A stretch of 64,000 nt of DNA from Minisyncoccota bacterium (GTDB taxonomy: Bacteria > Patescibacteriota > Minisyncoccia > Phycocordibacterales > Phycocordibacteraceae), in contig DASWXP010000002.1 in the NCBI GenBank assembly GCA_036405415.1, positions 125,862-189,861 of the forward strand, written 5' to 3'. Each line of letters starts with the position of its first letter. Position 1 is the first letter of the stretch. Shown one piece after another: positions 11,561 to 54,559 of this stretch. Under the pieces are notes generated by a model. It was not told the origin of the DNA and did no database searches. It was given only the letters and a program-made list of their open reading frames with translations. The translations under genes and the position numbers were made by a program.

Positions 11561-11736
11561 AGGTACTCTGAGAACATAGGAAACTCGCGTTCAATCGACT
11601 CACCAATCTCTTCCTCGGTCGTGAAGGTGGGAAAATTACGCGACAGGAAAGCATTCCAGTAAGTGTACGCCGTCACAACGAGCACAAGGAGGCACAAAAG
11701 TACGAACGGATCCAGAACTTCCTTAATTCCCTTCAT
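11557..11736 (-). CDS. Small membrane protein (59 aa), hypothetical
   Basis: ATG at 11736 gives MKGIKEVLDPFVLLCLLVLVVTAYTYW... (one TM helix plus an acidic tail). Sits between the SET gene stop (11723) and the HK start (11560) with overlaps at both ends. Confidence 0.4.
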   Translation of the reverse strand: MKGIKEVLDPFVLLCLLVLVVTAYTYWNAFLSRNFPTFTTEEEIGESIEREFPMFSEYL

Positions 11737-12229
11737 GTTTTGATAATACCTCACGCTCGTACACTTTCTGGAAGTACTTCGGGATAAAAGGGAGATACTC
11801 CCGATAGGTCTTTTCAGGAAGCGTTTGGATTGGGCCAATGAACTTGCGGAAAGCTGGCGACTCAGGCTCCTCAGTTTCGAAGCAGTAATCGACATCCTCC
11901 TCTGTGGTTGAATAGTCGATCGTAATCTCCTCCCCGGCCGCAATATCTCTCAAGGCATATAATCTCAACTTTCTCGAACCTTTCAGGCCGGCCGTCGGGG
12001 CGCAGGAGTGGTTAAGGTACTGAAACTCATCGATCGGATCGATCCAAGTATTCTTTCCGATTCCAATCCAATCTCCGTAGCGGTTGCTTTGTCCGTAGAT
12101 GGTCGGTTCGTAATATACCCGGGATCCCCGCAGCTCAGCGATAAACTGGCCACGCTTAAGCGCCTGGCGAGTGAAAACCCCGTAACCGTGTATTGGGCTT
12201 TCTAGTACTGAGAGTAAGGCCTTTTTCAT
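11723..12229 (-). CDS. SET-domain protein (putative protein-lysine methyltransferase)
   Basis: 168 aa with SET signatures GYGVF, YLNHSCAPT (NHSC) and ITIDYS (post-SET Tyr). Confidence 0.75.
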   Translation of the reverse strand: MKKALLSVLESPIHGYGVFTRQALKRGQFIAELRGSRVYYEPTIYGQSNRYGDWIGIGKNTWIDPIDEFQYLNHSCAPTAGLKGSRKLRLYALRDIAAGEEITIDYSTTEEDVDYCFETEEPESPAFRKFIGPIQTLPEKTYREYLPFIPKYFQKVYEREVLSKHEGN

Positions 12230-29364: not shown

Positions 29365-31281
29365 CTATGCAAGAACGCCCTTAATCCTGCGCACCCCCGC
29401 AGCAACCGCTTCCTCCTTTTGGATACGGAATTTCATGCCTCCCTCGTGTATCTCGCGTGTGTTCGTGACATGCGGACCGCCGCAGAACTCGAGCGAAAAC
29501 GCGTTTGGGATATCTGGGTTCCCTTCAATCGCATGTGCAGGACCCACGGAATACACGGACACCATATCCGGGTACTTAACACCGAACTCCATTTCCGCTC
29601 CAAGCTTCTCTGCTTCCTCGCGCGGCATAACGGTCCTCGTAACCGGGAGGTCCTGATAGATGATCTCGTTCACGATCCTCTCCACTTCCGCTTTCTGCTC
29701 GTCCGTCATCTTTCCTGGAGACGCGAAGTCGATGCGCAGGCGTTCAGCCGTAATATTCGAGCCGCGCTGCTTTACTTCATGCCCAAGCACCATCTGCAGC
29801 GCCTTAAGGAGGATGTGGTGCGTGGTGTGGTACCGGACCGTCTGCGCTGAGTGATCCGCAAGGCCGCCTGCGAACTTCTGAGCCGCGCCGGCGCGGGACT
29901 GGCTCTGGTGCTCCTTCATCTTCGCGGCAACAGCCTCCATATCAAGCGCGATGCCGCGCTCCTTGGCGATCTCTTCCGTAAGCTCAACAGGGAAGCCGTA
30001 GGTAGTGAAAAGAGTGTACGCAGCGTCAGGCGTGAGCTGGTCTTTCGCTACGAGCTTCTCGAGCTCGCGCATTCCCTGCGCAAGCGTCTTTCTAAACTTT
30101 TCTTCCTCCTTCGCGAGCTCTTCGCGGATCATGTCTGCATGCGCGAGCACGTGCGGATAATGGTCGGCATACGCTTCGCCGTATCCTTTTGCTACGTCGG
30201 CAAGCACCGCATCCTTGATGCCGAGCCGATCCGCTTCGCGAATCGCGCGACGGATAAGGCGGCGGAGCACGTACCCTGCCTCGGTGTTAGATGGCTTGAT
30301 GTCTTCCGCGAGCATGAAGGACGCGGCGCGCATGTGGTCAAGGATGATGCGATACGCGCGCGTCGTCTCCTCGTCTGAGCCATACGCCTTTCCGGTGCGT
30401 GCTTCGAGCACGCCGCGCGCTGCATCGAATACGTCGAGCAGGAATGCGTCAGGAGTGCCTATAGATGCCATCCCGAGGCGCTCGAGACCGCCGCCGAAAT
30501 CCACGTTCTGCTTCGGAAGCGGGACGAAGCTTCCGTCCTCTGCCTTAACGAACTGCATGAACACCGAGTTCCCGATCTCGACGAATCGTCCGCAGTCGCA
30601 GTTCGGATGGCACTCAGGGCCCCACGAGGTATCGTGCGTAAGGCCGAAATCGTAGAAGATCTCGGAATCCGGGCCGCCCGGCTCGCCTGCCGGCATGTTC
30701 GCCGGAACCCCTGCGCGACTCCACCAGTTCTTCTTCGCGTCGTACGCGAAGATGCGCGCGCCCTGCATGCCCTTCTGGTATCCGTCCGCTTCAGAGCCGA
30801 TGTTCGCGAATCCTGCATCGATTCCCTTCTCTTTATAAAGGCGCTGCCAGATGGATACGGCCTCCATATCAGGACCCATGCCAGTGCTCTCGTCCCCGGC
30901 AAACACCGTTACATGGAGTCTTTCTGGATCAAGCCCGAGCCCCTCTTCTTTTGAGGTTAGAAATTCGAATACCCACGGAAGCTGCTCTTCCTTGAAATAG
31001 TCTCCGAGAGACCAGTTGCCGAGCATCTCGAAGAACGTGGTGTGGCGGTTGTCGCCAACCTCCTCGATGTCTCCTGCACGGAAGGAGAGCTGCGAGTCCA
31101 CGATACGGGTGCCTGCCGGGTGCGCTTCTCCGAGCAGGTACGGCACCAAGGGCTGCATGCCCGACGAGGTAAAAAGCGTGGTCGGGTCGTTTCCAGGCAC
31201 GATCGGCGCCGAAGGGATGATGGCGTGCCCGCGCTTCTCGTAAAAGGCGAGGAACCGGCTGCGTACGTCGCTAAGCTTCAT
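29365..31281 (-). CDS. alaS: Alanine--tRNA ligase (short form lacking the C-Ala domain)
   Basis: N-terminal AlaRS catalytic core (FTSSGMQPL..., FFEMLGNWSLGDYFK), an editing domain with HTTHHILLKAL and a CxxxH region. Only 638 aa versus about 870 typical. Confidence 0.9.
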   Translation of the reverse strand: MKLSDVRSRFLAFYEKRGHAIIPSAPIVPGNDPTTLFTSSGMQPLVPYLLGEAHPAGTRIVDSQLSFRAGDIEEVGDNRHTTFFEMLGNWSLGDYFKEEQLPWVFEFLTSKEEGLGLDPERLHVTVFAGDESTGMGPDMEAVSIWQRLYKEKGIDAGFANIGSEADGYQKGMQGARIFAYDAKKNWWSRAGVPANMPAGEPGGPDSEIFYDFGLTHDTSWGPECHPNCDCGRFVEIGNSVFMQFVKAEDGSFVPLPKQNVDFGGGLERLGMASIGTPDAFLLDVFDAARGVLEARTGKAYGSDEETTRAYRIILDHMRAASFMLAEDIKPSNTEAGYVLRRLIRRAIREADRLGIKDAVLADVAKGYGEAYADHYPHVLAHADMIREELAKEEEKFRKTLAQGMRELEKLVAKDQLTPDAAYTLFTTYGFPVELTEEIAKERGIALDMEAVAAKMKEHQSQSRAGAAQKFAGGLADHSAQTVRYHTTHHILLKALQMVLGHEVKQRGSNITAERLRIDFASPGKMTDEQKAEVERIVNEIIYQDLPVTRTVMPREEAEKLGAEMEFGVKYPDMVSVYSVGPAHAIEGNPDIPNAFSLEFCGGPHVTNTREIHEGGMKFRIQKEEAVAAGVRRIKGVLA

Positions 31282-31292
31282 ATACGGCTACT

Positions 31293-33338
31293 TTACTTGC
31301 CCGAAAGCTCGCGCGCTAGGGCGTCAGCCTTATACACGGTCTTCAGCACCGAATAGATACCCTGCGAGTGTACGCAGACCGTATGCTCCTTCTCGTCCGC
31401 CATATACATGAACGAATCTCCTCCCTGCGTATGCACGAGCCCGTCAAAAAGAAGTCCTACGATCTCCTTATTCGGCGTAAATACCGGACTGCCTGAGTTT
31501 CCGCCATGCGTGTCGTGCGTGGTGATGAAGTTGAACGCGGACTTGTCCTGTACAAGCTTCGCGCGCTGCTTCTCCCAGGACGCAGGAAGCTTCCATGGGA
31601 ACTCTCCCTTATGAAGCGCTGCGTGCGCGAACACCCCGCCGATAGTCGTGTAGTTTGGTTCAGGGACCTTTTCTACCGCATACTGCACGCTCTTACCGTA
31701 CGTAAGTCGAAGCGTGAAGGTTGCATCTGGATAGATGGACTCCCCGTACAGACTGAATAGGGCCTGCGCGATGCGACCGTACGCGTCTTCCATAACCGTA
31801 TCGACACGTGTCTCGACGAGCTTACGCACCTTGCGCGCGCGGGAATCGATTGAGAGCGCGAGCTGAATGAAGGGATCCTTCGATGCCCCTACCGCCGCCT
31901 TCCCGCCTTTCACGAGCTTCTTTCGCTCAGCCACCGAATCAAGCTTTGACCTCCCTACATATTCTTTGGCAACCGCTTCAACAGAGCGTCCTCCCAGGAT
32001 GCGCTTCACATCCTTGTCATCAAAGCCAAGCGTCTCGACGAGGTATCGAAGCGCATCAGTAAACAAATGTTCTTCAAGATCCTTATATATGGGCGTCGGC
32101 GCGTACAATTCCTCAAGAAGCGAGTCTCTTCGTGCGTCGCCGAACTCCTCAAGTCGCTTCGCGTTCGGCTTCGTATCCTCTTCAACGAGGCGAACGATGG
32201 TATGCGCGATGCCGAACAATTCCGAGCGGAATCCGCGTCCTGCCTCGAACATGAGGTATTCGTCACGATGTGCACGGAAGAGCTCGAGTGCTTCCTTGAT
32301 CTCGTCCCACGCCTTTCCCGTGCGCTTTGCAACGGCCGGGTTCTTCTTGATCGCAGCGCGAATCTCTTGTTCGCGCTTTTCGAGCGCGTCTGTAAAGCTC
32401 TGGGTTTGGATGGACGCGAGCTGACCAGCGTAGCGCTTCCGGACGTTCTGGATGGAGTGCAGGCGATCATCCGCTCGGCGCGCATGCTCCGGGGACCTGC
32501 CGGCAAACTGCTGCAAGAGCACCTCCTGGCGCCGAACATAATCCATGAGACGCGGCATGGACTCATTGCGCATGAGCACGATGCGGTCATAGGTCGAAAG
32601 ACGATCCGTACTCCCTGGATGCCCTGCTACGAACAAGGGTTCGCCAAGCTTCGGAGCGCGCGTAGACCATGCGAAATGACTCGGAGACTGGAGCGGCTTG
32701 CCGTTCTCGTATACGCGGAAGAATGTCACGTCGAGCGAGTAGCGGGGATACTCGTAGTTATCGATGTCGCCACCGAACGAGGCGATAGCGCTTTCAGGAG
32801 CGAACACGAGACGTACATCCGTGTATTTCATATACCGGTACAGGTGGTACTGACCGCCGTTATACAGCGTCACCACGTCGCTTCTCATGCCGGTACGCTC
32901 CTTCGATTCCTTCTCGATAGAAGCAATCACGGCACGACGCTTCTCCATGCGCTTCTCAAGATCCTTGATTCCCTTCAAAGACTCCTCTATCTGCTTCGTG
33001 ACGTCCTCAATCTCCCACAGCACGTTCACCTCGAGCTGCTTGGCTTTAAGCTCTTCCGCTCGTGTCTTCGCGAGGAAGCCATCTTTCATGTAGTCCTTCT
33101 CCTTCGAGCTCAGATTATAGAGGATGTCAGCTGCGACGTGATGATTGGTCGCGATAAGGCCGTCTTTTGAGACGAACGAGGCGGATCCGCCGTTGTTCAT
33201 GCGCACCGCAGCGCGCTGGATGTTCTCGATCCATGCGTCGTCTACCGATACCTTGTGAAGCTTCTTAAGTCGATCCTTTGGGACCATGTTTAGGGGCCAC
33301 ATGCCCTCATCCCCTTTGAGTATGGTGTCAGCATTCAT
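31293..33338 (-). CDS. Peptidase S46 family (dipeptidyl-peptidase 7/11-like), apparently without a signal peptide
   Basis: ATG 33338 gives MNADTILKGDEGMW..., matching the mature N-terminus of S46 DPPs. Catalytic His in DGLIATNHHV and Ser in TTHDTHGGNSGSPV. There is no room for a signal peptide, because ung ends at 33366. Confidence 0.8.
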   Translation of the reverse strand: MNADTILKGDEGMWPLNMVPKDRLKKLHKVSVDDAWIENIQRAAVRMNNGGSASFVSKDGLIATNHHVAADILYNLSSKEKDYMKDGFLAKTRAEELKAKQLEVNVLWEIEDVTKQIEESLKGIKDLEKRMEKRRAVIASIEKESKERTGMRSDVVTLYNGGQYHLYRYMKYTDVRLVFAPESAIASFGGDIDNYEYPRYSLDVTFFRVYENGKPLQSPSHFAWSTRAPKLGEPLFVAGHPGSTDRLSTYDRIVLMRNESMPRLMDYVRRQEVLLQQFAGRSPEHARRADDRLHSIQNVRKRYAGQLASIQTQSFTDALEKREQEIRAAIKKNPAVAKRTGKAWDEIKEALELFRAHRDEYLMFEAGRGFRSELFGIAHTIVRLVEEDTKPNAKRLEEFGDARRDSLLEELYAPTPIYKDLEEHLFTDALRYLVETLGFDDKDVKRILGGRSVEAVAKEYVGRSKLDSVAERKKLVKGGKAAVGASKDPFIQLALSIDSRARKVRKLVETRVDTVMEDAYGRIAQALFSLYGESIYPDATFTLRLTYGKSVQYAVEKVPEPNYTTIGGVFAHAALHKGEFPWKLPASWEKQRAKLVQDKSAFNFITTHDTHGGNSGSPVFTPNKEIVGLLFDGLVHTQGGDSFMYMADEKEHTVCVHSQGIYSVLKTVYKADALARELSGK

Positions 33339-33365
33339 AGTACAAGGACTGTACCACACGCCCGA

Positions 33366-34031
33366 TTAGGACCAATCTACAGGCTCTTTTCCGTGCTCTT
33401 TGAGGTACGCATTCGCCTTACTAAACGGCTTTGAGCCAAAGAAGCCGTTAGATGCGGAGAACGGGGACGGGTGCGCAGACTCGATAACCAAATGCTTGGC
33501 ACGGTCTATATGGGCTCCCTTGCTGCGGGCGTAATTGCCCCAGAGTATGAAAACGATGTGCTCGCGTTCTTCTGAGAGCGCCTTGATAGCCGCATCCGTG
33601 AATGCTTCCCAGCCTTTTCCCTGGTGCGAGCCTGCGGTGCGGGCACGAACTGTAAGCGTAGCGTTGAGAAGCAGTACGCCTTGCTTTGCCCAGCGCGAAA
33701 GATCGCCATGCGCACCCACCGGCGTCCCGAGATCGTCTGCAAGCTCTTTGTATATGTTACGCAAGGACGGCGGAAGCGTCATGCCTTCTTCTACCGCAAA
33801 CGAGAGGCCGATCGCCTGACCTGGTCCGTGATAGGGATCCTGCCCGAGTATCACCACCTTCACCTGACCGAACGGCGTAAGCTCGAATGCCCGGAATATA
33901 TTCTTCGGGTGCGGGTACACCGCACTGCTCTGGTATTCCTCTTTTACGAACTCCGTGAGCTCCTTAAAGTACGGCTTTTTGAACTCCCCTTCGAGCTTCT
34001 CCTTCCAGGACGGCTCTATACGCACCTCCAT
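33366..34031 (-). CDS. ung: Uracil-DNA glycosylase, family 1
   Basis: GQDPYHGPGQAIGLSFAV water-activating motif and the C-terminal HPSPLS-like motif (ESAHPSPFSASNG). 221 aa. Confidence 0.9.
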   Translation of the reverse strand: MEVRIEPSWKEKLEGEFKKPYFKELTEFVKEEYQSSAVYPHPKNIFRAFELTPFGQVKVVILGQDPYHGPGQAIGLSFAVEEGMTLPPSLRNIYKELADDLGTPVGAHGDLSRWAKQGVLLLNATLTVRARTAGSHQGKGWEAFTDAAIKALSEEREHIVFILWGNYARSKGAHIDRAKHLVIESAHPSPFSASNGFFGSKPFSKANAYLKEHGKEPVDWS

Positions 34032-34034
34032 ACG

Positions 34035-34817
34035 CTATTTCTTATTCTTTTGATGCAGCGCGAGCAGCTTCTTTCCTGACGCTTCGCGATACGGGCAGAA
34101 TTCGCACGCGCCGCCCACGGGCGGAATAGCCTCCGCCTCAAGTACGGCCTTGATCCTCGGGAGCACCTCGTCGATCCAGCCGGTCTGCCCTTCGCACTCG
34201 ACGACCGTTACCTCAAACTCGAGCTTCCCGTCGAACGCCTCCTTGTCCCCATCCGCGTTCGCGTACACGAGGTATCCCATGTTTGAGACGTCAAACCCGT
34301 TTTTCCGAAGGAGCCATTGGTACACGCCCATCTGGCGGCGGTACTGCTCGTTCCAGCTCGAGTCTCCCAGGATCTCGATCTTTCCTGGCTTGGAAGTGGA
34401 TTTGTAATCTACGACGATGAGCTGCCCGTTCTCGTCTACCCAGATATCGTCTACGGCTCCTGAGATAACGAATCCGGTCTCAGGATCCTTGTATTCGACA
34501 CCTTCGAAGTTCTCGCGCCAGGTATCCATGTTGGCGTGGCTGAACGGTACCGCCTTGATGCCGTACTGCTCCATCAACGGATGCGGCGTGCCTGCTTTGC
34601 GGTGTCCGTCGAATTCCTTCTTGAAGAGCTGGTCTACGGCCTTGTTAAGGGTGAACTCAGGGTAGCTAGGGCGCTTGGTGCCAAGCTTGTTATCAAGATA
34701 GAAGCAGCGCTCGCATTCGAGGAAGAACTCGATCTTCGAGCGCGAGAGGCGCCATTTCTTGCCGCCGTAGTTCCAGTCGGCGCTTCGGTTTGGGTTGTAT
34801 CGCTTCCAGTCCGCCAT
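34035..34817 (-). CDS. PD-(D/E)xK nuclease, Cas4-like / DUF83 family with a 4-Cys cluster
   Basis: Start at ATG 34817 (MADWKRYNP...); upstream ORF sequence overlaps the preceding gene. Motifs: N-terminal CERC, VDDIWVDENGQLIVVDYKS (D...DxK), QMGVYQWLL (QxxxY), C-terminal CEFCPY. Total 4 Cys, as in Cas4 Fe-S nucleases. Confidence 0.7.
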   Translation of the reverse strand: MADWKRYNPNRSADWNYGGKKWRLSRSKIEFFLECERCFYLDNKLGTKRPSYPEFTLNKAVDQLFKKEFDGHRKAGTPHPLMEQYGIKAVPFSHANMDTWRENFEGVEYKDPETGFVISGAVDDIWVDENGQLIVVDYKSTSKPGKIEILGDSSWNEQYRRQMGVYQWLLRKNGFDVSNMGYLVYANADGDKEAFDGKLEFEVTVVECEGQTGWIDEVLPRIKAVLEAEAIPPVGGACEFCPYREASGKKLLALHQKNKK

Positions 34818-34819
34818 AC

Positions 34820-35656
34820 CTATGCGTCTGCGCCGCAGAGCGTGTTCGTCTCTGCGACAACCGTGCCGATGCGCTCGGGCGTAAGGCCGATGCCGCGCAA
34901 AAGGTCCCGGTGCTCGCGCACCTGCTGGCAGGTGACGATGCCCTGGTCTATCAAAAGGCGCTTCTCGCTCTTCTTGAGCGTCGTGAGCGCGGTAACCGGG
35001 AAGAGTCCTGACGCCACGATGCGGTCGTAGAGGCTCGAGCCATGTGGATAGCTCCACCCGAGAAGCTGCATGCCAGAGCAGGTAGCAAAATCAATAGCGT
35101 CCTTCGTGAACTTGGTGTTCGTGATCAAGAATCCGATATCGACCGGACAGGTCTTCTGGTCCTCTTCCTTGCACTGCCAGATATCGTCAAAGCGCGCCTT
35201 CACATAGAGCGCTACCTTCACGTCCGTCTTATAGCCCGGGCTGTTGTGGTACTTAAGTTCCGCGGCGAGATGCTCGTTCCCGCGCTTCGCGTACACGTCC
35301 ACCTCGTGCGACACGCACTTCCCGGGGATCATACGGCGGCCCTCTACGGTCCAGCCTTCTTTCTTGAAGAGCTCCGCTACGAAGTCCTCGAACGGATGGC
35401 CCGTAGGGCCGAGGTCAAAGAGCGCACGGCGCAAGCTATAGCGTGCGGCTGCAGGACGTGCGTCCGTGCGGAGCATCTGGAACGCGCGGCGATAGATATC
35501 AGAGCTTTCAGCGCGCGGACCCATGGTCGCTTCGATCGTATGACGGATGCGTTCCGCCGTGACATCTGAGGCGCCTGCACGACGCAAAGAGCTCTCGAGC
35601 TTCACACCATCGAAGATCTCGACGGTCCCGTCTGCCTTGATGATCTCGGGCTTCAT
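34820..35656 (-). CDS. ATP-cone + restriction-endonuclease-like (Mrr-type PD-(D/E)xK) + HhH protein
   Basis: N-terminal ATP-cone (MKPEIIKADGTVEIFDGVKLESSLRRAGAS...), then a Mrr-cat-like core (FEDFVAELFKKEGW..., EVDVYAK..., AAELKYH = D...ExK), then a C-terminal HhH (LLRGIGLTPERIG). Its start abuts the mnmA stop. Confidence 0.7.
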   Translation of the reverse strand: MKPEIIKADGTVEIFDGVKLESSLRRAGASDVTAERIRHTIEATMGPRAESSDIYRRAFQMLRTDARPAAARYSLRRALFDLGPTGHPFEDFVAELFKKEGWTVEGRRMIPGKCVSHEVDVYAKRGNEHLAAELKYHNSPGYKTDVKVALYVKARFDDIWQCKEEDQKTCPVDIGFLITNTKFTKDAIDFATCSGMQLLGWSYPHGSSLYDRIVASGLFPVTALTTLKKSEKRLLIDQGIVTCQQVREHRDLLRGIGLTPERIGTVVAETNTLCGADA

Positions 35657-36676
35657 TTACCCTATGATACCACCCCCGATAACGCGGTCGTTTCTGTAGA
35701 TAACGAGCGACTGCCCTGCAGCAACCGGCTCAGGAAGCGGCCCCTCGGGAACGAATGCATTTCCTGAAAGCGTACCCTTAATAACGGGTCCGTGGTACCG
35801 GAACTGAGCCTCCACGAGTCCTTCTGCCTCTCCGAACCAGTTCAGCTGCGAAAGCTTGATGCGATCTGGCGGCGACACGCGATCCTTGGATACGACCAGC
35901 TCGTTCTTCTCGATATCCTTCCGAACCACGTACCACGGACCCTGCGAAGCGCCCTCTATCGCTATACGGCTCCCAAGCGTATGGAAGAGCGCGCCATCGT
36001 GCTTTCCGAGCACGTTGCTTTCGGTATCGCGCGCGATTCCCGGTTCCTGCTCGCCGAGCTCCTGGCGCAGGAAATCCTCCACGGAAATGCTCCCGAGGAA
36101 GCAGATGCCCTGACTATCCTTCTTGCGTGCGTTCGGGAGCTTGAAACGCTTCGCAAGCGTACGGGTCCCATCCTTCTTCATGCCTCCGAGCGGCATGAGC
36201 GTCATGGCAAGCGCTTCCTCGGGCACTGCCCAGAGGAAGTAGCTCTGGTCCTTGGCCTCGTCTGTGCCTCGAAGCAGCTTTCCGTCTTCCACGCGCGCAT
36301 AGTGCCCGGTTGCGATATAGTCCGCACCCTTCTCTTTGGCGAAGCGGTAGAACGCGCCGAACTTAACCTCTCGGTTGCACATGATGTCAGGGTTTGGCGT
36401 CCTTCCCGCCTTGTATTCAGCAAGAAGATAGTCGATTACGCCCTGTTTGTACTCCTTCGATGCATCAAGCGTAATGAAGGGAATTTGCAGCCGTGCTGCA
36501 ACACGCATCGCATCCCTGCGATCTTCTGCCCAGGTGCAGAGCATGCCAGGCGGATACCAGCCCTTTATGAATACGCCGATGACGTCTGCGCCTCGTTCCT
36601 TAAGGAGCGCTGCGGTTACGGCAGAATCGACGCCACCGGAAAGTCCTACGAAGATCCTCTTTCCCTTCAGGTTCAT
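35657..36676 (-). CDS. mnmA: tRNA-specific 2-thiouridylase
   Basis: PP-loop SGGVDS at the N-terminus, catalytic Cys region (ICFLGSI), 339 aa. Confidence 0.9.
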   Translation of the reverse strand: MNLKGKRIFVGLSGGVDSAVTAALLKERGADVIGVFIKGWYPPGMLCTWAEDRRDAMRVAARLQIPFITLDASKEYKQGVIDYLLAEYKAGRTPNPDIMCNREVKFGAFYRFAKEKGADYIATGHYARVEDGKLLRGTDEAKDQSYFLWAVPEEALAMTLMPLGGMKKDGTRTLAKRFKLPNARKKDSQGICFLGSISVEDFLRQELGEQEPGIARDTESNVLGKHDGALFHTLGSRIAIEGASQGPWYVVRKDIEKNELVVSKDRVSPPDRIKLSQLNWFGEAEGLVEAQFRYHGPVIKGTLSGNAFVPEGPLPEPVAAGQSLVIYRNDRVIGGGIIG

Positions 36677-36694
36677 GCCTGAAGATATACCACA

Positions 36695-38098
36695 CTACGT
36701 AGGAAGATTGCTTGGTGCCTCGCTCGTCGTGGACTGGATGCGAGGCAGGCTCGGGGTCGTAACCGAGCTCGACGGCACATGATAGAGCGTCGCCATCTCC
36801 TCGACGCTCATGACGTTGTAGTCACCCACATATGGCGGATGGAAGAACGCACGCATGCGGTAGTACAAGAGCACCATGTGCTTCATATGCTCGCTATGAT
36901 GCCCATGCGGATCCTCCCACGGATAGTCGTTGAAATGGTTGTCCCAACGGCCGTCGGCAGGCATGAGCGAGTTCGCGTTCTCCGAGTTGAACGGCTTGAA
37001 GATGTTCACCAGCACGCCGCCCATGGTGCCCTGCGCCACGTCCTTCGGCGCGAGATAGATGCCGCGGATACCCACGTCGAACGCCTGCTTGCCGGTGTTC
37101 TTCTCGATAGCCTCGATGCGCGTCGCCATGGCGCGCGTCGGATTCGGATAGGAAACTGAGGTGCGCTTCACGCCGTTGGCATCCACGTACTCGTTCTCCA
37201 CCTTGTCTTCCTCGCGGAGCTTCTTAATCTCTTCCTTTGCCGCATCCTTCCAGGACGACGGCTTCGAGTCCCATGGCTTCCCCTGGTGCACACGCACCAC
37301 GAACTGGAGCCACAGCTGCTCCTTGGGACCCAAGGATCCCATGATTTCTATCATCTGCGCCAAGGGATCGATCTGCTCTTCTGGCTTCTGCACCTTATCA
37401 AGACCGTACTCTACATACGTCTTCAAAGGATACGGATCCGGCTTCGTCTTTCGGAACTCGAAGGCCGTCATGGTGTACGGCTCATGAGACGGATCAACCA
37501 GACGGCTGTAGTCCATGGCTTCGATAACCTCAACGCCAGGGTACTGCGCGTACAGGTAGCTCTCGAGCGCGCGGCGCCAGCCGGAGCGCAGCCATACGAA
37601 GTAGTGCACGCGGCCGCCGATGGATACGATCTCGTACGAATACCACGGGCGGGCGCGTCCCTGGATGATGCGCTTGTACCAGGTGTTCTCGCCTCCGGCG
37701 ATATGCATGCTCGAGAACACGGTCTCCATCGCAAGCGGCGTGCGCCTCGTGTCGCGAGGCATCTTGATCTCAAGCAGTACGGTCTCCTGCTTCGCGATCC
37801 ACGCGGACTTGTTCGCGTCGACAAACCTCCTGAATCCGAACGTGAACAGGAGCGCCGGGATCCAGAGCGGGGAAAGGAACAGGAGGAACTGGAAGTTCGT
37901 TATGGTCTGACTCGGCGAGAAGAAGAAGAAAGCGACGAGCTCCGCGCCGAACGCAATCAAAAGCGGCTTCAGCTCGACCGAGCTGCCCCCGTCTTCGTGC
38001 GCCTTGTGCATCCACCCTTTAATAAGGTCATGCCCCGGAAGCATGCTTTTGCTGTGTCCGCCTGCTGACATGCGCAAAGTATAGCAACGAAACGACAC
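36695..38098 (-). CDS. Hypothetical membrane-anchored protein (467 aa)
   Basis: N-terminal hydrophobic segments followed by a large soluble domain. No family recognised. Confidence 0.45.
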   Translation of the reverse strand: MSFRCYTLRMSAGGHSKSMLPGHDLIKGWMHKAHEDGGSSVELKPLLIAFGAELVAFFFFSPSQTITNFQFLLFLSPLWIPALLFTFGFRRFVDANKSAWIAKQETVLLEIKMPRDTRRTPLAMETVFSSMHIAGGENTWYKRIIQGRARPWYSYEIVSIGGRVHYFVWLRSGWRRALESYLYAQYPGVEVIEAMDYSRLVDPSHEPYTMTAFEFRKTKPDPYPLKTYVEYGLDKVQKPEEQIDPLAQMIEIMGSLGPKEQLWLQFVVRVHQGKPWDSKPSSWKDAAKEEIKKLREEDKVENEYVDANGVKRTSVSYPNPTRAMATRIEAIEKNTGKQAFDVGIRGIYLAPKDVAQGTMGGVLVNIFKPFNSENANSLMPADGRWDNHFNDYPWEDPHGHHSEHMKHMVLLYYRMRAFFHPPYVGDYNVMSVEEMATLYHVPSSSVTTPSLPRIQSTTSEAPSNLPT

Positions 38099-38140: not shown

Positions 38141-39250
38141 TTAAGCGACCTGGTAGGTGCCGTCCTTCTGACGCTTGAAGTGACGCGTGTCGCCGAGATT
38201 CACGAGGATGGTGTTGTCCTTCACGTAGCGGACCTTCTTTACTTCCTCGATGATCGCGTCGCGCGTGAGCGGCCCATGCTTCTCGAGCACCTCGCGGATC
38301 ACGTCGCGCACGACGCCCGGCTGGTAGCCCCACTCAGCGAGCGCGTAGAGGCCACGGCCCACGAGCACGAAGCGGGAATCCTTGATGAGCTCGTTATGGG
38401 TCGTCGCGACATGCGCCTTCTTATTGAAGACCTCAACGATGGAAGACGCAACGTCCGCAAAGTGCATCGGCTCGCCCTTCTGCTTGATGACGAGGTACGC
38501 GTAGTCGCGGATACCCTTGGTGCGAATCGCTGGCGCGTGCGCCTTGCCCCACTCAGAAAGCGGATTCTTTGCGATAGTCTTTGAAATGGTGAGCCAGCGC
38601 TTCAAGATCTCCTCGTTCTGATACGCCTCGTTCACGCCCTTCAGCTCCTCGAGGAAGCGGTTGATGATGTCGCCCTCAGAAAGGACCTCAGCATCGTCAA
38701 GCGTCTCGTAGAGGCGCGAGAGCGCGGTGTGCACCGCCTCAGCGGTCTTATGGTCGACGTGCCAGCGGGCGTAGAAGTCGTCGGTCTCGCGCTCGCGGAA
38801 GAACGCGCTGCCCACGACAAGCAGGAAACGGAAGCGGTTCTTCGCCTTCTCGTCTGACGCGAGACCTGCGAGAAGCACATCCTCAGGAACGATGCCGCCC
38901 TGTCCCTCGATATGGGACGCGAGCTCGTCGAACGCCTCCTGCGACTCCTTGAACGCCTTCGAATTGCGGATGGACTCGATGCCCGCAGCCTCGATCTGGC
39001 GCACGCGCTCGCGCGTGATGCTCCAGCGCTCGCCGATAGCCTCGAGCGTCTCGCGGCGCTGCGCCGTCCCGAGTCCGAAACGGAGAGTGAGCACCTCGCG
39101 GCCGCGCTCTGGAACCTCCGAAAGAAGCTTCTTCACGAGCGCTACCGTGTCGAACGAGAGGGATGCGCTGGCTGCCTTCGGTGCCTTCGCCTTCTTAGCG
39201 GCTGGGACCTTCTTTGAAGCGGCTGCCGGCTTCTTCGCTGATTTCGCCAT
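38141..39250 (-). CDS. DNA-binding protein with a histone-H1-like Lys/Ala-rich N-terminal tail and a sigma-70 region-4-like HTH
   Basis: N-terminus MAKSAKKPAAASKKVPAAKKAKAPKAAS; segment EVLTLRFGLGTAQRRETLEAIGERWSITRERVRQIEAAGIESIR resembles sigma70 region 4. About 230-aa C-terminal domain of unknown function. Confidence 0.5.
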   Translation of the reverse strand: MAKSAKKPAAASKKVPAAKKAKAPKAASASLSFDTVALVKKLLSEVPERGREVLTLRFGLGTAQRRETLEAIGERWSITRERVRQIEAAGIESIRNSKAFKESQEAFDELASHIEGQGGIVPEDVLLAGLASDEKAKNRFRFLLVVGSAFFRERETDDFYARWHVDHKTAEAVHTALSRLYETLDDAEVLSEGDIINRFLEELKGVNEAYQNEEILKRWLTISKTIAKNPLSEWGKAHAPAIRTKGIRDYAYLVIKQKGEPMHFADVASSIVEVFNKKAHVATTHNELIKDSRFVLVGRGLYALAEWGYQPGVVRDVIREVLEKHGPLTRDAIIEEVKKVRYVKDNTILVNLGDTRHFKRQKDGTYQVA

Positions 39251-39298: not shown

Positions 39299-42169
39299 CT
39301 AGCCTATAACCAGGCTGAGAATCCTCCCCGGGACGTACACAGCCTTCGATATTGCTCCGATTGTGAGGGCTTCACGTACGAATTGGAGGCCCCGAGCGGC
39401 CGCGATAACGTCCTCCTCCGAGGCAGTTTTCGGAAGGACGACTTCCCCGCGCTTCTTCCCGTTCACCTGCACTACTATCGTCATGCCGTCGTCTTCAGGC
39501 ACTTCGCGGGATGGCCACGAGGCTTGATGTACGGATCCCTCGTTGCCAAGCCCCTGCCAGAGATGATCGGCAAGATGCGGCGCAAGCGGCGCGAGCAGCC
39601 GCAAGAGCTCGCCATACGCTTCCTTCGATACCTGCTCCTGCTTCTCGAGATCGCGCACGAGCACCATGAGCGCCGAGATGGCGGTGTTGTACTTGAAGCG
39701 CTCGATATCCTCAGACACCTTCGCCGTTGCCTGCGCGAGTGCCTTCGCTTCGGCAGGTGCCGCCTCTCCTTCTATGACCTTCTCCTTGAGCGCATAGATG
39801 CGGTCGAGGAACTTGCGCATGGCTGTCGCGCCATCTAGGTTCCAAGGATAGGTGCCCGGCTCGTTGTACGGGCCGATGAAGGCGAGGTACATGCGTACCG
39901 CGTCCGCGCCGAGCTCCTTCACGACGGAATCCGGATTAATTACGTTGCCTTTGGATTTCGACATCTTCGCGCCGTCAGGACCGAGGATGAGACCGCGGTT
40001 GAAGCGCTCTACGAAGGGCTCCGCTACCGGCACGAGCGCGAGATCGTACAGCGCCTTCACGAAGAAGCGCGAGTAGAGAAGGTGCATGGTGGTGTGCTCG
40101 CTGCCGCCTGAATAGCGGTTCACCGGCAGCCACCGCTTCATGACGGACTGGTCCGAGAAGTCATGCTCGTCCTTAGGATCCAGGTACCTGAGGAAGTACC
40201 ACGAGGAATCCACGAAGGTGTCGAGCGTATCGTACTCCGGGGTCCAGCCCTCGCCGAAGATGCGCGTTACGCGCTCCTGAAGCTCCCTTGAGGTTGCAAG
40301 CGGCGACTTGCCGGACGGCGTGAAGTCGACGTCCGTCGGGAGAAGCCACGGCAGGTGTTCCGCTGGAATGACATGCGGATTGCCTTCGGGATCGTATACG
40401 ACCGGTATCGGGCAGCCCCAGTACCGCTGGCGCGACACGAGCCAGTCACGAAGGCGATAGTTCGTTACCTTCTCGCCGCCGACGAACGCGATGATGTCGT
40501 CGATCGCCTCGCGGTTGTCGCGGCCAGAAAACTCGCCTGAATTCCTGAGAAGACCGTCCCCTCCGTACGCGCCTGGCGTAAGGAATCGCGCGAGCGCGTA
40601 GCTATGAAGCGGATCCTTCACGTCGCGAATCGCGTCCGCAAAGGGAACCCATTCAACCTCGAACTTACCTTTCTCGTCCTCTTCGAGCTTCGGTTCTTCG
40701 CACGCCTCACTCTTCAAGCGGAAATGAAGGAGCGTGGTATGCGCTACCCATGCCTTATTCTTCGAGTGCGCGAAGTACTCGTGATGTACCTGCTCCTGGG
40801 CACGCTCTACAAGCTCGAGATCCGTGTATCCGGTTTCCTCAGCGATCTCTCGCATGGCTGTGTATGCAGGATCCTCGCCTTCTTCCGCGGTACCGCCGAC
40901 GGTAAGCCGTCCGCCAAGCTCGGGCCTCCAGTGGATAGTGAGCACCTTTCCTTCGTGCTCGACGATCGCGACGATCTTCTCCTTATCTTCCGGATTCTCC
41001 TGCTTGGATCCTGTTATCGGATCGATAACGCGTCGCACCGAGAGATTCATCTTCTTCGCGAACTCAAAATCACGCTCGTCATGCGCCGGTACTGCCATGA
41101 CCGCTCCCGTGCCGTATGACGCGAGCACGTAATCTGCTACGTATACCGGAATCTCTTCTTGCGTAGCGGGATTAATAGCGCTGATTCCCTCGAGGCGTAC
41201 GCCCGTCTTCTCCTTGTTCTCCTGACGCTCGCGCTCGGTCTTCTTTTGCGCGGCTTCAACGTACGCACGGACCTCGTCCTTATTTAAAACTGCGTCGTCA
41301 TGCGGAGTGTCCCAGGCGGCGCGCACCCACGGGTGCTCCGGAGCAAGCACGAGATAAGTCGCGCCGAAGATAGTGTCGGGGCGCGTCGTGAACACGGAGA
41401 CTTGAGACGGATTTCCGTCCTCGTCTCGCCAGGCATCCTTCTCTTCGTTCCCGAACACGAGACGGAAGGGGATCCGGGCGCCCTCTGACTTTCCTATCCA
41501 CGCGCGCTGCGCGTCCTTGATGTCCTCGCGCCACGGAAGCGGATCGAGGTCCGTGATAAGGCGGTCCGCGTACTTCGTGATGCCCATGAACCACTGCGTG
41601 AGGTTCTTCTCCTCGACCTCGGTGCCGCAGCGCTCGCACTTCCCATCGTTCACCTGCTCGTTGGCGAGCACGGTCTGGTCCTTCGGGCACCATTTGACCG
41701 GTGCGTTCTTCCGGTACGCGAGCCCGTGATCATAGAGCTTCGTGAAGAGCCACTGCGTCCACTTGTAGTACTCAGGGCTCGAGGTAACCACCTCCTTGGA
41801 CCAATCAACCGAAGTTCCCATGGAGCGTACCTGTGCGCGCATGGTCTCCATATTCGCGTTCGTCCACGCTGCAGGATCCTTCCCGTACTTTATGGCGGCG
41901 TTCTCCGCAGGAAGCCCGAAGGAATCGAAGCCCATCGGGAACAGGACGTTCTTTCCCTGCATGCGCAGCATGCGCGCGAAGATATCCGTGAGCGCGAACG
42001 CGTACCAGTGCCCGATATGAAGGTCTCCCGAAGGGTATGGGAACTCGAAGAGGAGGTAGTAGGGATCACGATCAGTATCGGCAAGGTCCGCGCGATAGAG
42101 ATCGAGCTCCTGCCAGCGCGCCTGCTGCGCCTTCTCGATCTCCTGATGGTCGAATCGCTCGCGCGCCAT
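39299..42169 (-). CDS. leuS: Leucine--tRNA ligase carrying an inserted NUDIX hydrolase domain
   Basis: HIGH (HIGH at residues ~51-54), CP1 editing motifs TTRPDT and AVPAHDERD, KMSKS (KMSKSKGN), an anticodon-binding domain, 956 aa. An extra ~140-aa segment with a perfect Nudix box lies between the CP1 exit and the conserved NSGEF region. Confidence 0.9.
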   Translation of the reverse strand: MARERFDHQEIEKAQQARWQELDLYRADLADTDRDPYYLLFEFPYPSGDLHIGHWYAFALTDIFARMLRMQGKNVLFPMGFDSFGLPAENAAIKYGKDPAAWTNANMETMRAQVRSMGTSVDWSKEVVTSSPEYYKWTQWLFTKLYDHGLAYRKNAPVKWCPKDQTVLANEQVNDGKCERCGTEVEEKNLTQWFMGITKYADRLITDLDPLPWREDIKDAQRAWIGKSEGARIPFRLVFGNEEKDAWRDEDGNPSQVSVFTTRPDTIFGATYLVLAPEHPWVRAAWDTPHDDAVLNKDEVRAYVEAAQKKTERERQENKEKTGVRLEGISAINPATQEEIPVYVADYVLASYGTGAVMAVPAHDERDFEFAKKMNLSVRRVIDPITGSKQENPEDKEKIVAIVEHEGKVLTIHWRPELGGRLTVGGTAEEGEDPAYTAMREIAEETGYTDLELVERAQEQVHHEYFAHSKNKAWVAHTTLLHFRLKSEACEEPKLEEDEKGKFEVEWVPFADAIRDVKDPLHSYALARFLTPGAYGGDGLLRNSGEFSGRDNREAIDDIIAFVGGEKVTNYRLRDWLVSRQRYWGCPIPVVYDPEGNPHVIPAEHLPWLLPTDVDFTPSGKSPLATSRELQERVTRIFGEGWTPEYDTLDTFVDSSWYFLRYLDPKDEHDFSDQSVMKRWLPVNRYSGGSEHTTMHLLYSRFFVKALYDLALVPVAEPFVERFNRGLILGPDGAKMSKSKGNVINPDSVVKELGADAVRMYLAFIGPYNEPGTYPWNLDGATAMRKFLDRIYALKEKVIEGEAAPAEAKALAQATAKVSEDIERFKYNTAISALMVLVRDLEKQEQVSKEAYGELLRLLAPLAPHLADHLWQGLGNEGSVHQASWPSREVPEDDGMTIVVQVNGKKRGEVVLPKTASEEDVIAAARGLQFVREALTIGAISKAVYVPGRILSLVIG
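40580..40996 (-). other. NUDIX hydrolase domain inserted within leuS (residues ~392-530)
   Basis: Nudix box GTAEEGEDPAYTAMREIAEETGY fits GX5EX7REUXEEXGU exactly. E. coli LeuRS has only about 25 residues at the equivalent position ([30 protein letters not shown]). Checked at the nucleotide level around 40880-40930. Confidence 0.7.
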
Positions 42170-52876: not shown

Positions 52877-53410
52877 CTATTTCCCTGCCTTAAGCGCCTC
52901 AAGGTCCGCCAGTACCCTCGCTACGTCCTTCGTGAGCTGCTCGAGGGTCTCCGCCTTCGTCGGCTTCTTGCCTTTCGGCTTCTTTTCACGAGGCTCGTCA
53001 TCATCGTCCTCGTTGAGCTCCTCGACGTCTTCCTGGATCTCGTCGATGTCCTCGGAGATCTCCTCGATGTCCTCAGAGATCTCTTCGAGGTCCTCCTGGA
53101 TATCCTCCATGTCCTCACCGAGCTCCTCGACGTCCTCCTGGATCTCGTCGATGTCTTCCTCAACCTCGCGAAGGCTCTGGGTATGCTTGTTAACCGTTAT
53201 CTGGATGAAGATAGCAAGATAGATGGCTTCGAGGGAAAGTATGGTTGTGAGGACAAGGAGCATGAGCTCCCAGGAGAGGATGCCGAATACCGCGAGTAGG
53301 AAGAATGCAGCGAAGGCAGCGCTGTGCACGAAGAGAGACTGTACGGAGCCAACGCTTGATACGATGCGCTCAACCGCATTCGGAACATAGGGAGCTCGTG
53401 GCGTGCGCAT
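52877..53410 (-). CDS. Membrane protein, possibly DUF1003 family, with an acidic heptad-repeat tail
   Basis: ATG 53410 (MRTPRAPY...). Two TM helices then ...EDIDEIQEDVEELGEDMEDIQEDLEEISEDIEEISEDIDEIQEDVEEL... then a Lys-rich end. The longer track ORF runs antisense into mltG and is rejected. Confidence 0.45.
   Translation of the reverse strand: MRTPRAPYVPNAVERIVSSVGSVQSLFVHSAAFAAFFLLAVFGILSWELMLLVLTTILSLEAIYLAIFIQITVNKHTQSLREVEEDIDEIQEDVEELGEDMEDIQEDLEEISEDIEEISEDIDEIQEDVEELNEDDDDEPREKKPKGKKPTKAETLEQLTKDVARVLADLEALKAGK
52995..53170. repeat. Tandem approximately 21-nt coding repeats (7-aa acidic units EDIxEIx, 7-8 copies)
   Basis: Visible periodicity gatctc(c/t)tcgatgtcctc(g/a)ga... on the plus strand, inside gene 52877..53410. 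Confidence 0.55.
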
Positions 53411-53476
53411 TACGTTGACCGTACCACCGTACTCCGCACGCTGTCGAGGAACACCTGTGCGTATCAGTTCCTTTTT

Positions 53477-54559
53477 ATGAGATTCATGGGATACAATACG
53501 GAGCAAATGGCGAACATGCCGAGGCGCAATCTTATGCCGCATCCGGCGCTCAGGCGTCGTGCGAAGACGCGCGCAGACCTGCGTGCGGCAGGTTCCGCGA
53601 TCCTTGCGCTCGTGCTCGTATCGTTCGCACTCCTTTCCCTTCCCAAGGTGCTTCAGAACCAGGTTATCGTGGCAGCCGAGGAGCCGGCAAAGCCTCCCTT
53701 CCCGGTTACGGTTGACCCTATCAACGAGACTATCTCTGAAGACCCGGCCGTAGACGCGCTGTTCGGCGAGACGAACGAGTCGCTTGAGGCTGCCGCGTGG
53801 CTCGGCAGCGCCGCTATAACCAAGCTCGCGAACCTCATCGCTTCCATTCCGGGCTATTCCCAGATCGCAGGCTCCGATATCGCGTTCGTAGACATCAAGG
53901 CAGGATACCGCCAGGAAGAGGTTGCTCGCTCCTTTGGGCTTGCACTCGGATGGACGAAGGCGGAGCAAGAAGCGTTTCTGAAGCAGCTGAGCGAAACCGA
54001 GCCTGAACTCCTTGAGGGCGAGGCGGTGCCAGGTATCTATATGGTGTCTTCTGCAGCGAACCCGTCGTACGTGCAGGAACTCCTTTCAGACCGCTTCGAG
54101 CGCGATGTAGCGTCCCGCTACAGCTCAGAGGCGGAGAAGGTGCTTCCGCTTGAGGACGTGCTTACGATCGCATCCTTGCTTCAACGCGAGACCCGCGATC
54201 CGTCCGAGATGCGCCTCATCTCCGGCATCATCTGGAACCGTCTGTGGAGCGGCATGAACCTCCAGATTGATGCGACGCTGCAGTACGCAAAGGCCTCCAA
54301 GGGCGGCACGAAGACCTGGTGGCCGGTGCCGGTACCGAACGACAAGTACATCAAGTCCGAGTACAACACGTACCAGAACGAAGGGCTTCCTCCGGCACCT
54401 ATCGCAAGCCCCTCGACCGAAGCAATCCTTGCAGCGCTCAACCCGAAGAAGACCGACTGTATCTTCTATTTCCATGACCGCAGAGGGAACATGCACTGCT
54501 CTCCTGACTATCAGGGGCACGTGAAGCTGCTTAAGAAGTATTACGGACAGGGACGATAG
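53477..54559 (+). CDS. mltG: Endolytic murein transglycosylase MltG (YceG family)
   Basis: N-terminal TM anchor. YceG-like core with ASLLQRETRDPSEMRLISGIIWNRL and LQIDATLQYA; C-terminal FYFHD...G.H.FS-like motif. Confidence 0.85.
   Translation: MRFMGYNTEQMANMPRRNLMPHPALRRRAKTRADLRAAGSAILALVLVSFALLSLPKVLQNQVIVAAEEPAKPPFPVTVDPINETISEDPAVDALFGETNESLEAAAWLGSAAITKLANLIASIPGYSQIAGSDIAFVDIKAGYRQEEVARSFGLALGWTKAEQEAFLKQLSETEPELLEGEAVPGIYMVSSAANPSYVQELLSDRFERDVASRYSSEAEKVLPLEDVLTIASLLQRETRDPSEMRLISGIIWNRLWSGMNLQIDATLQYAKASKGGTKTWWPVPVPNDKYIKSEYNTYQNEGLPPAPIASPSTEAILAALNPKKTDCIFYFHDRRGNMHCSPDYQGHVKLLKKYYGQGR

Follow-up and report, generated by a model that had tools for sequence, protein, structure and literature searches.

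An ATP-cone on a predicted nuclease: a probable housekeeping gene of Patescibacteria with ties to nucleotide metabolism in other phyla

In a 64,000-nucleotide stretch from the genome of a Minisyncoccota bacterium (contig DASWXP010000002.1, positions 125,862 to 189,861), hereafter the window, two consecutive minus-strand genes, which we call A (34820..35656) and B (34035..34817), encode predicted nucleases of the PD-(D/E)xK class. A and B appear to be housekeeping genes, conserved and in single copy, in Patescibacteria of the Paceibacteria type, and in our view they do not constitute a dedicated two-gene system. The reading that we favor, and to which we give about an even chance, is that these genes, probably parts of one operon, have separate tasks, with A being an adenine-nucleotide-gated nuclease that acts in nucleic-acid turnover and the nucleotide economy of the cell, and B a repair nuclease. 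What is understood of ATP-cones is limited, to our knowledge, to their part as the activity switch in ribonucleotide reductases (RNRs) and in the repressor NrdR. If a cone also controlled a nuclease, the regulatory logic of RNRs would carry over to nucleic-acid degradation, and for the first time an ATP-cone would be seen to govern a process besides ribonucleotide reduction. The architecture of A is already visible in databases, through its Pfam domains and the NCBI product name; a literature search found no study of it, and nothing that characterizes A, B, the pair, the operon described below or the function of the related archaeal protein AF1548 beyond a prediction made in 2007. An earlier, preliminary description of this DNA was thus right to call the arrangement uncharacterized. 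What is new is that a predicted nuclease carries an ATP-cone, along with the gene contexts in which this protein is found.

Both open reading frames (ORFs) proposed in that description are present at the positions given above, and they are real genes and not chance ORFs because each has thousands of homologues (2459 scored for A, 7913 for B). The 278-residue product of A, of which an identical copy is deposited as 'MAG TPA: restriction endonuclease [Candidatus Paceibacterota bacterium]', comprises an N-terminal ATP-cone (approximately residues 1–80; 35417..35656, minus strand), a PD-(D/E)xK nuclease core of the AF1548/Mrr type (approximately residues 86–205; 35042..35401, minus strand) and a C-terminal domain that resembles a tandem helix-hairpin-helix, (HhH)2 (approximately residues 206–275; 34832..35041, minus strand; AF1548-like_C, PF22357). 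In Pfam searches with the protein from the window, the Mrr_cat profile scored 25.1 bits, above its gathering threshold (GA) of 21, whereas the ATP-cone profile (PF03477) reached 19.1 bits against a GA of 25.8. Among 31 diverse homologues that are 33–51% identical, the ATP-cone was matched in 29 at E ≤ 0.01 (best 4.6e-10), Mrr_cat in 28 and AF1548-like_C in 24. Residues 92–275 of A are homologous to AF1548 of Archaeoglobus fulgidus (PDB 1Y88; E = 4e-26, and 5e-49 in a profile search), a 199-residue protein that consists of Mrr_cat and AF1548-like_C and, unlike A, has no ATP-cone. AF1548 was predicted in 2007 to be a restriction endonuclease with the catalytic residues D38, E51 and K53 (PMC1821046), which align with D120, E133 and K135 of A. 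These three residues, as well as E90, are invariant in the 31 homologues and in a larger set of 90 sequences, in which H117 and E118 are likewise invariant down to 36% identity. Other positions invariant across diverse homologues are K7, G10, G83, G86, F89, G112, C114 and the same E118, followed by Y151, R155, D158, N180, C193, W201 and P204. With its predicted catalytic residues intact, A would be competent for catalysis as an AF1548-type PD-(D/E)xK nuclease. For AF1548 itself, a structural-genomics target, no activity is known, and it cannot serve as a functional precedent for A.

The assignment of the N-terminal domain is further supported by structure prediction. An AlphaFold model built from a shallow alignment of 18 close homologues had a predicted local distance difference test score (pLDDT) of 59 and was not used; the model obtained from the 90 diverse sequences had a pLDDT of 93 and a predicted template-modelling score (pTM) of 0.89. 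In this model, the N-terminal part folds as a β-hairpin over a four-helix bundle and can be superposed on the cones of RNR and NrdR. A search of the PDB with the N-terminal profile was dominated by designed helical-repeat proteins and gave weak in-register matches to NrdD and NrdA, with profile positions 1–54 aligning to NrdA residues 7–62. The ATP-cone positions K7, G10, F15 and K19 are conserved in the A family and, along with the NrdA alignment, suggest nucleotide binding; the common KRDG motif reads KADG, with alanine in place of the arginine found in the cones of NrdR and RNRs, and ligand binding by A is predicted only. Taken together, the reading of A as an ATP-cone, a Mrr-like nuclease and an HhH2-like domain, already put forward from the letters alone, is solid. 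What distinguishes A from NrdR and from NrdA, NrdB and NrdD is the output, which is a Zn-ribbon repressor or a reductase in those proteins and a nuclease in A. The family also has four cysteines, C114, C193, C243 and C274, two invariant and two nearly so, which are spread over the nuclease and C-terminal domains and could form a metal or redox-sensitive site; AF1548 retains three of them.

The distribution of A was explored by scanning one genome per GTDB species, which yielded more than 597 relatives; 80 loci at 40–50% identity were analyzed, 64 of them from Patescibacteria and 16 from other bacteria, mostly Bacteroidota. None of these 16 loci includes mnmA, B or ung, and the pair described here is not found together outside Patescibacteria. 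Instead, in Bacteroidota and Chlamydiota the ATP-cone nuclease is encoded in an operon with a β-CASP nuclease, a phosphorylase and a phosphoribosyl pyrophosphate (PRPP) synthetase (loci L090 1972-6597, L091 5998-10605, L173 10001-14755 and L020 5980-10645). On plasmids of Pontibacter actiniarum and Criblamydia sequanensis the operon is annotated as A, under the product name 'ATP cone domain-containing protein', a metallo-β-lactamase (MBL)-fold β-CASP hydrolase, a 'thymidine phosphorylase family protein' and a ribose-phosphate pyrophosphokinase, flanked by a 2-hydroxyacid dehydrogenase or by a P-type ATPase, phosphoketolase, glycogen phosphorylase and acetate kinase. In the cultured Cyclobacterium marinum this operon is annotated as well, accompanied by PFOR, and an Algoriphagus carrier has a Usp gene alongside. 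Since A occurs in organisms in culture (C. marinum, P. actiniarum and Algoriphagus ratkowskyi), direct testing is possible. The β-CASP protein of the operon resembles the catalytic modules of aCPSF1 and Cas14 and carries an RMMBL RNA-specificity domain. The phosphorylase belongs to the archaeal-type subfamily NF003338 (668 bits, NCBIfam) and scores 480 against a cut-off of 535 with the AMP phosphorylase model.

A metagenome scan of the non-Patescibacteria branch of A added 80 loci. At 30 of 65 non-Patescibacteria loci a β-CASP gene begins downstream of A at a distance of no more than 400 nt, a thymidine-phosphorylase (TP)-family gene accompanies A at 10 of 40 and a PRPP synthetase gene at nine of 40; other recurrent neighbors are a Ca-type P2 ATPase, PFK, 2-hydroxyacid dehydrogenase and PPK2. 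The islands that contain the operon encode phosphoketolase, acetate kinase, PFK, PPK2, Usp, PFOR and a Ca-type P-type ATPase, and they appear similar to loci for low oxygen or dormancy, among them Burkholderia lxa and Bradyrhizobium bll3115-3117, the latter being likened to the genes of the A operon by product names alone and not by homology. The low-oxygen lxa locus of Burkholderia includes a metal-dependent RNase, a cation ATPase and acetate kinase (PMC3721108), and the Bradyrhizobium trio, an MBL-fold hydrolase, a PRPP synthetase and a thymidine-phosphorylase-family protein, is induced by low oxygen (PMC6515984). A connection of A to Mg2+, to which an MgtC-family gene near A in Patescibacteria and, for Bacteroidota, the P-type ATPase had pointed, was rejected as a theme common to the two groups, as the ATPase beside A is of the Ca type (511.6 bits with the PMCA model, cut-off 507) and falls well under the cut-off of the Mg-type model.

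Within Patescibacteria, A has a fixed place. For A as for B, the best 120 homologues have identities of 69% or more and belong to organisms named Paceibacterota, Parcubacteria or Patescibacteria, and in several of the metagenome-assembled genomes among them A and B have adjacent locus tags. Relatives that are 71–76% identical share the order mnmA-A-B-(small ORF or minimal O6-alkylguanine transferase, Ogt)-ung within a larger leuS-to-alaS syntenic block. In distant Patescibacteria, mnmA directly precedes A at 56 of 57 loci, and where at least 5.5 kb of flanking sequence is available, mnmA and a DUF8128 gene are upstream at all 42 loci and a gene with sigma-70 region 4 and a HARE-HTH domain at 41; the latter two genes are uncharacterized and typical of the lineage. 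B is found downstream on the same strand within 1.5 kb at 37 of 51 loci, and within 5 kb at 34 of 47. Direct adjacency of A and B was seen in only seven distant loci. Where the two are not adjacent they are separated by an MgtC-family gene, a DUF7282 gene or both; of 47 loci, 25 encode an MgtC/SapB-family membrane protein in this place and 12 a DUF7282 protein (for example, L037 6826-7326 and L042 6957-7568). Co-location of the pair therefore does recur in relatives, so that the adjacency is not confined to the window; however, as the retention of B (34/47) is below the synteny of mnmA and DUF8128 (42/42 each), it provides no signal above background.

Further downstream, 29 of the 47 Patescibacteria loci have, after B, an Ogt-like gene with an intact PCHRV motif. 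This minimal Ogt consists of the C-terminal catalytic domain alone, 87–90 amino acids long (for example, L046 3174-3446 and L006 9657-9920), and is absent from the 64-kb window. A uracil-DNA glycosylase (UDG) gene is likewise present at 29 of the 47 loci, of family 1 in 16 and of family 4 in 13. One clade has no B at the locus, and there A is followed by an HD-domain gene with a weak match to 5'-deoxynucleotidase and then by a family-4 UDG. The same variable stretch also carries PCMT and peptidases of the M3, M13, M16 and S46 families. The surroundings of A and B are accordingly a mixed maintenance and housekeeping region with a clear DNA-repair flavor. A tRNA-related role of A, suggested by the 98% linkage to mnmA, was not adopted, as this linkage is no stronger than that to DUF8128 or to the sigma/HARE gene and is absent outside Patescibacteria.

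The product of B, 260 amino acids from an internal ATG, belongs to the Cas4/RecB family of PD-(D/E)xK nucleases, with Pfam matches of 60.4 bits to PDDEXK_1 (GA 22) and, at the domain level, 25.7 bits to Cas_Cas4 (GA 22.7). In 24 homologues the RecB motifs G120-A-V-D123 (GxxD, motif II), D137-Y-K139 (DxK, motif III) and Q162-xxx-Y166 are invariant, and so are the cysteine pairs C35-x2-C38 and C238-x2-C241, which bears out the Cas4-like nuclease with DxK, QxxxY and four cysteines of the preliminary description. GxxD, DYK and QxxxY motifs, four cysteines flanking the core and a first cysteine at the 'CPR' position typical of Cas4 are features that B shares with Cas4 and with the nuclease domains of AddB and AdnAB. 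In B, however, the fourth cysteine ligand is on the N-terminal side, giving the pattern CxxC...CxxC and not the canonical C...CxxCx5C; the four cysteines would probably form a metal or Fe-S site. Unlike Cas4, B is not CRISPR-associated. It scores 33.7 bits with the NCBIfam cas4 equivalog TIGR00372, far under the cut-off of 65; its neighbors, here and at related loci, are A and ung and not cas1 or cas2; and the 64-kb window has no repeat-spacer array, CRISPR RNA family or cas gene. Unlike AddB and AdnAB, it is a stand-alone protein with no helicase fusion, and it has a very conserved 30-residue N-terminal extension. A search of PDB sequences with B gave only noise for the single sequence and nothing for the profile. 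The sole homologue on a plasmid is a 334-residue PD-(D/E)XK protein with 41% identity (Flagellatimonas centrodinii plasmid NZ_CP092105; L175 5965-6969), encoded among hypothetical genes and adjoining helicase-related and nucleotide-kinase-domain proteins, which may be a mobile-element setting of this family of nucleases. The best reading of B is that of a stand-alone repair exonuclease of the RecB/Cas4 family, separate from A, and most likely it would process DNA ends or flaps, a role proposed because it is usually accompanied by the minimal Ogt and a UDG. To this extent the link to uracil and base excision repair proposed in the preliminary description has partial support for B; it fits A less well.

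For A, the strongest signal across phyla is its association with another nuclease and with genes of nucleotide and pentose metabolism, in islands of the energy-stress type. Together with the ATP-cone, this makes an adenine-nucleotide-gated nuclease the most economical reading. The ATP-cone would be the site at which adenine nucleotides (ATP versus dATP or ADP) bind; as in NrdR and RNRs, their binding would switch the oligomeric state of the protein, and in A it would thereby turn cleavage on or off, with the (HhH)2-like domain gripping the nucleic-acid backbone. The most likely role of A would be nucleic-acid turnover coupled to the nucleotide and energy economy of the cell, since in Bacteroidota and Chlamydiota it heads operons with an RNase-like β-CASP nuclease, a phosphorylase and a PRPP synthetase. 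Patescibacteria cannot make their own nucleotides, and the gated-nuclease reading fits a nucleotide-auxotrophic Patescibacterium that keeps A as a core gene, the family being conserved in this lineage and tied elsewhere to nucleotide-recycling genes in low-oxygen-type islands. A broader proposal, which we put forward only tentatively, is that A represents a widespread class of adenine-nucleotide-gated nucleases in which the ATP-cone serves as an allosteric switch, coupling the degradation of the cell's own RNA, DNA or both to energy and nucleotide status. Its place in Bacteroidota and Chlamydiota would be at the head of a pathway for low oxygen or starvation, running from the A nuclease to the β-CASP RNase, the nucleotide or nucleoside phosphorylase, PRPP or pentose and finally ATP, and Patescibacteria would have in it a core regulator of nucleotide salvage, located beside genes of DNA repair.

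Several observations weigh against the favored reading. The ATP-cone score of the protein from the window is under the Pfam gathering threshold, and the replacement of arginine by alanine in the KRDG motif could alter or abolish ligand binding. The nucleotide-salvage context comes from other phyla and need not transfer to Patescibacteria, in which the neighbors of A are DNA-repair genes, mnmA, MgtC and peptidases; even in the other phyla, the β-CASP neighbor is missing at about half of the loci. The HhH2 domain suggests duplex DNA as the substrate, whereas the RNA-specificity domain of the β-CASP partner suggests RNA. Finally, the tight translational coupling of A and B in the window and in close relatives is compatible with a functional partnership of the two.

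Such a partnership is the core of the main alternative, which we consider possible, if rather doubtful. It holds that the locus is a DNA-repair module in which A is a structure-specific endonuclease licensed by the dNTP/ATP pool, working with the B exonuclease, Ung and Ogt on uracil and alkylation damage, so that incision would take place only while nucleotides suffice for resynthesis. A would then be built like XPF/Mus81/Hef or NucS. The local context in Patescibacteria, with B, Ogt and UDG nearby, favors this view, but MgtC, DUF7282, PCMT, HD hydrolases and four kinds of peptidase share the same stretch, which points to mixed housekeeping, and B is retained less often than the background synteny. 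Moreover, in Bacteroidota and Chlamydiota A has no repair neighbors and lies beside an RNA-type β-CASP nuclease and genes of nucleotide metabolism. The XPF/Mus81/Hef and NucS/EndoMS proteins also belong to a different sequence family: A has no ERCC4 or NucS match in Pfam and, unlike them, shows no evident PCNA-type partner, and structure-specific cleavage by A is hypothetical.

An improbable alternative is that A does not cleave at all and is a nucleotide-sensing transcription regulator analogous to NrdR, in which the restriction endonuclease (REase) fold and the HhH2 domain would only bind DNA and the ATP-cone would set promoter occupancy. NrdR indeed combines an ATP-cone with a DNA-binding module, and the operon with the β-CASP, TP-family and PRPP synthetase genes often begins with A in Bacteroidota and Chlamydiota, a position typical of regulators. 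A also gave weak matches to Pfam families of inactive REase-fold DNA binders, such as NA-iREase1 in five of the 31 homologues. Inactivated REase folds, however, normally lose their catalytic residues, and the complete set of A is invariant in the 90 sequences, which makes a NrdR-like role unlikely; in Patescibacteria, in addition, A is located mid-operon, after mnmA.

The preliminary description had further raised the idea of a nucleotide-pool-sensing system against phages or plasmids, in which the ATP-cone of A would sense infection-induced shifts in ATP and dATP and free the two nucleases. Defense genes are patchily distributed and evolve rapidly, and the high conservation and fixed position of A and B are the opposite of this pattern. 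Both genes are under strong purifying selection, and B is 56% identical where A and MnmA are only 45% identical. The genes around the pair are those for tRNA synthetases, mnmA, ung and peptidases and do not form a defense island. Neither A nor B had a tblastn match in 50,697 phage genomes or was found in 2.9 million IMG/VR contigs; A matched no PHROG, and B gave only weak matches to exonuclease and Cas4-like PHROGs. Among 72,556 plasmids A is carried by two, both times within a metabolic operon, and B by one. In PADLOC-DB 2.0, A matched only the ZorD nuclease domain (E = 0.0035) and B only generic Cas4 models plus, weakly, DruK; no whole defense system was recovered for either gene, the partner genes being absent. 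Mrr-like type IV restriction endonucleases share the catalytic-domain family of A according to Pfam, but A differs from them in having an ATP-cone at the N-terminus and no winged-helix reader of modified DNA, in its housekeeping neighbors in place of a defense island, and in its fixed position in relatives instead of a patchy distribution. In the nucleases Can2, Card1, Cap4 and NucC of CRISPR type III and CBASS systems, CARF or SAVED domains read cyclic oligonucleotides, whereas the ATP-cone of A would read housekeeping adenine nucleotides, and A has neither a cyclase or CRISPR partner nor a defense context. The A–B pairing is, in addition, lineage-specific, and the adjacency of two nucleases in a compact genome does not by itself make a defense system, the less so here, where it is weaker than the background synteny. 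The defense hypothesis has essentially no support and is very improbable.

The layout of the locus is compatible with transcription as one unit. The mnmA gene (35657..36676, minus strand) encodes a tRNA 2-thiouridine(34) synthase and ung (33366..34031, minus strand) a family-1 UDG, as in the preliminary description, both identified by NCBIfam equivalog matches (349 and 334 bits, respectively). Direct reading of the sequence shows that the stop codon of mnmA abuts the start codon of A (TAA|ATG, 0 nt), that A and B are separated by 2 nt (TAG-gt-ATG), the spacing noted earlier, and that ung starts 3 nt past the stop codon of B (TAG-cgt-ATG). Seven genes (29365..38098, minus strand), for the DUF8128 protein, MnmA, A, B, Ung, an S46 peptidase and AlaS, lie on a single strand with gaps of 0–18 nt. 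The unit is flanked by strong hairpins with T-tracts (38126-38095 on the minus strand and approximately 29344-29305), and no strong minus-strand hairpin terminator was found between its genes. On the basis of this arrangement the seven genes are probably co-transcribed as a long operon. The DUF8128 gene (36695-38098, minus strand) encodes 467 amino acids, this copy itself having no Pfam match, and is preceded by the sigma-70 region-4 and HARE-HTH gene (38141-39250, minus strand).

The gene content of the window is that of a compact Patescibacteria genome, and its G+C content is 57–61%, except for a 2-kb stretch (10001-12000) at 49%. The leucyl-tRNA synthetase encoded at 39299-42169 (minus strand) contains a NUDIX hydrolase domain (residues 402–520; 46.3 bits against a GA of 21.1) inserted directly after the CP1 editing domain, and the same insert is present in the relatives L004 and L006. 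A tandem repeat at 53006-53168, with about seven copies of a 21-nt unit and a super-period of 63 nt, lies within a minus-strand ORF (52877-53968) and probably encodes an acidic peptide repeat.

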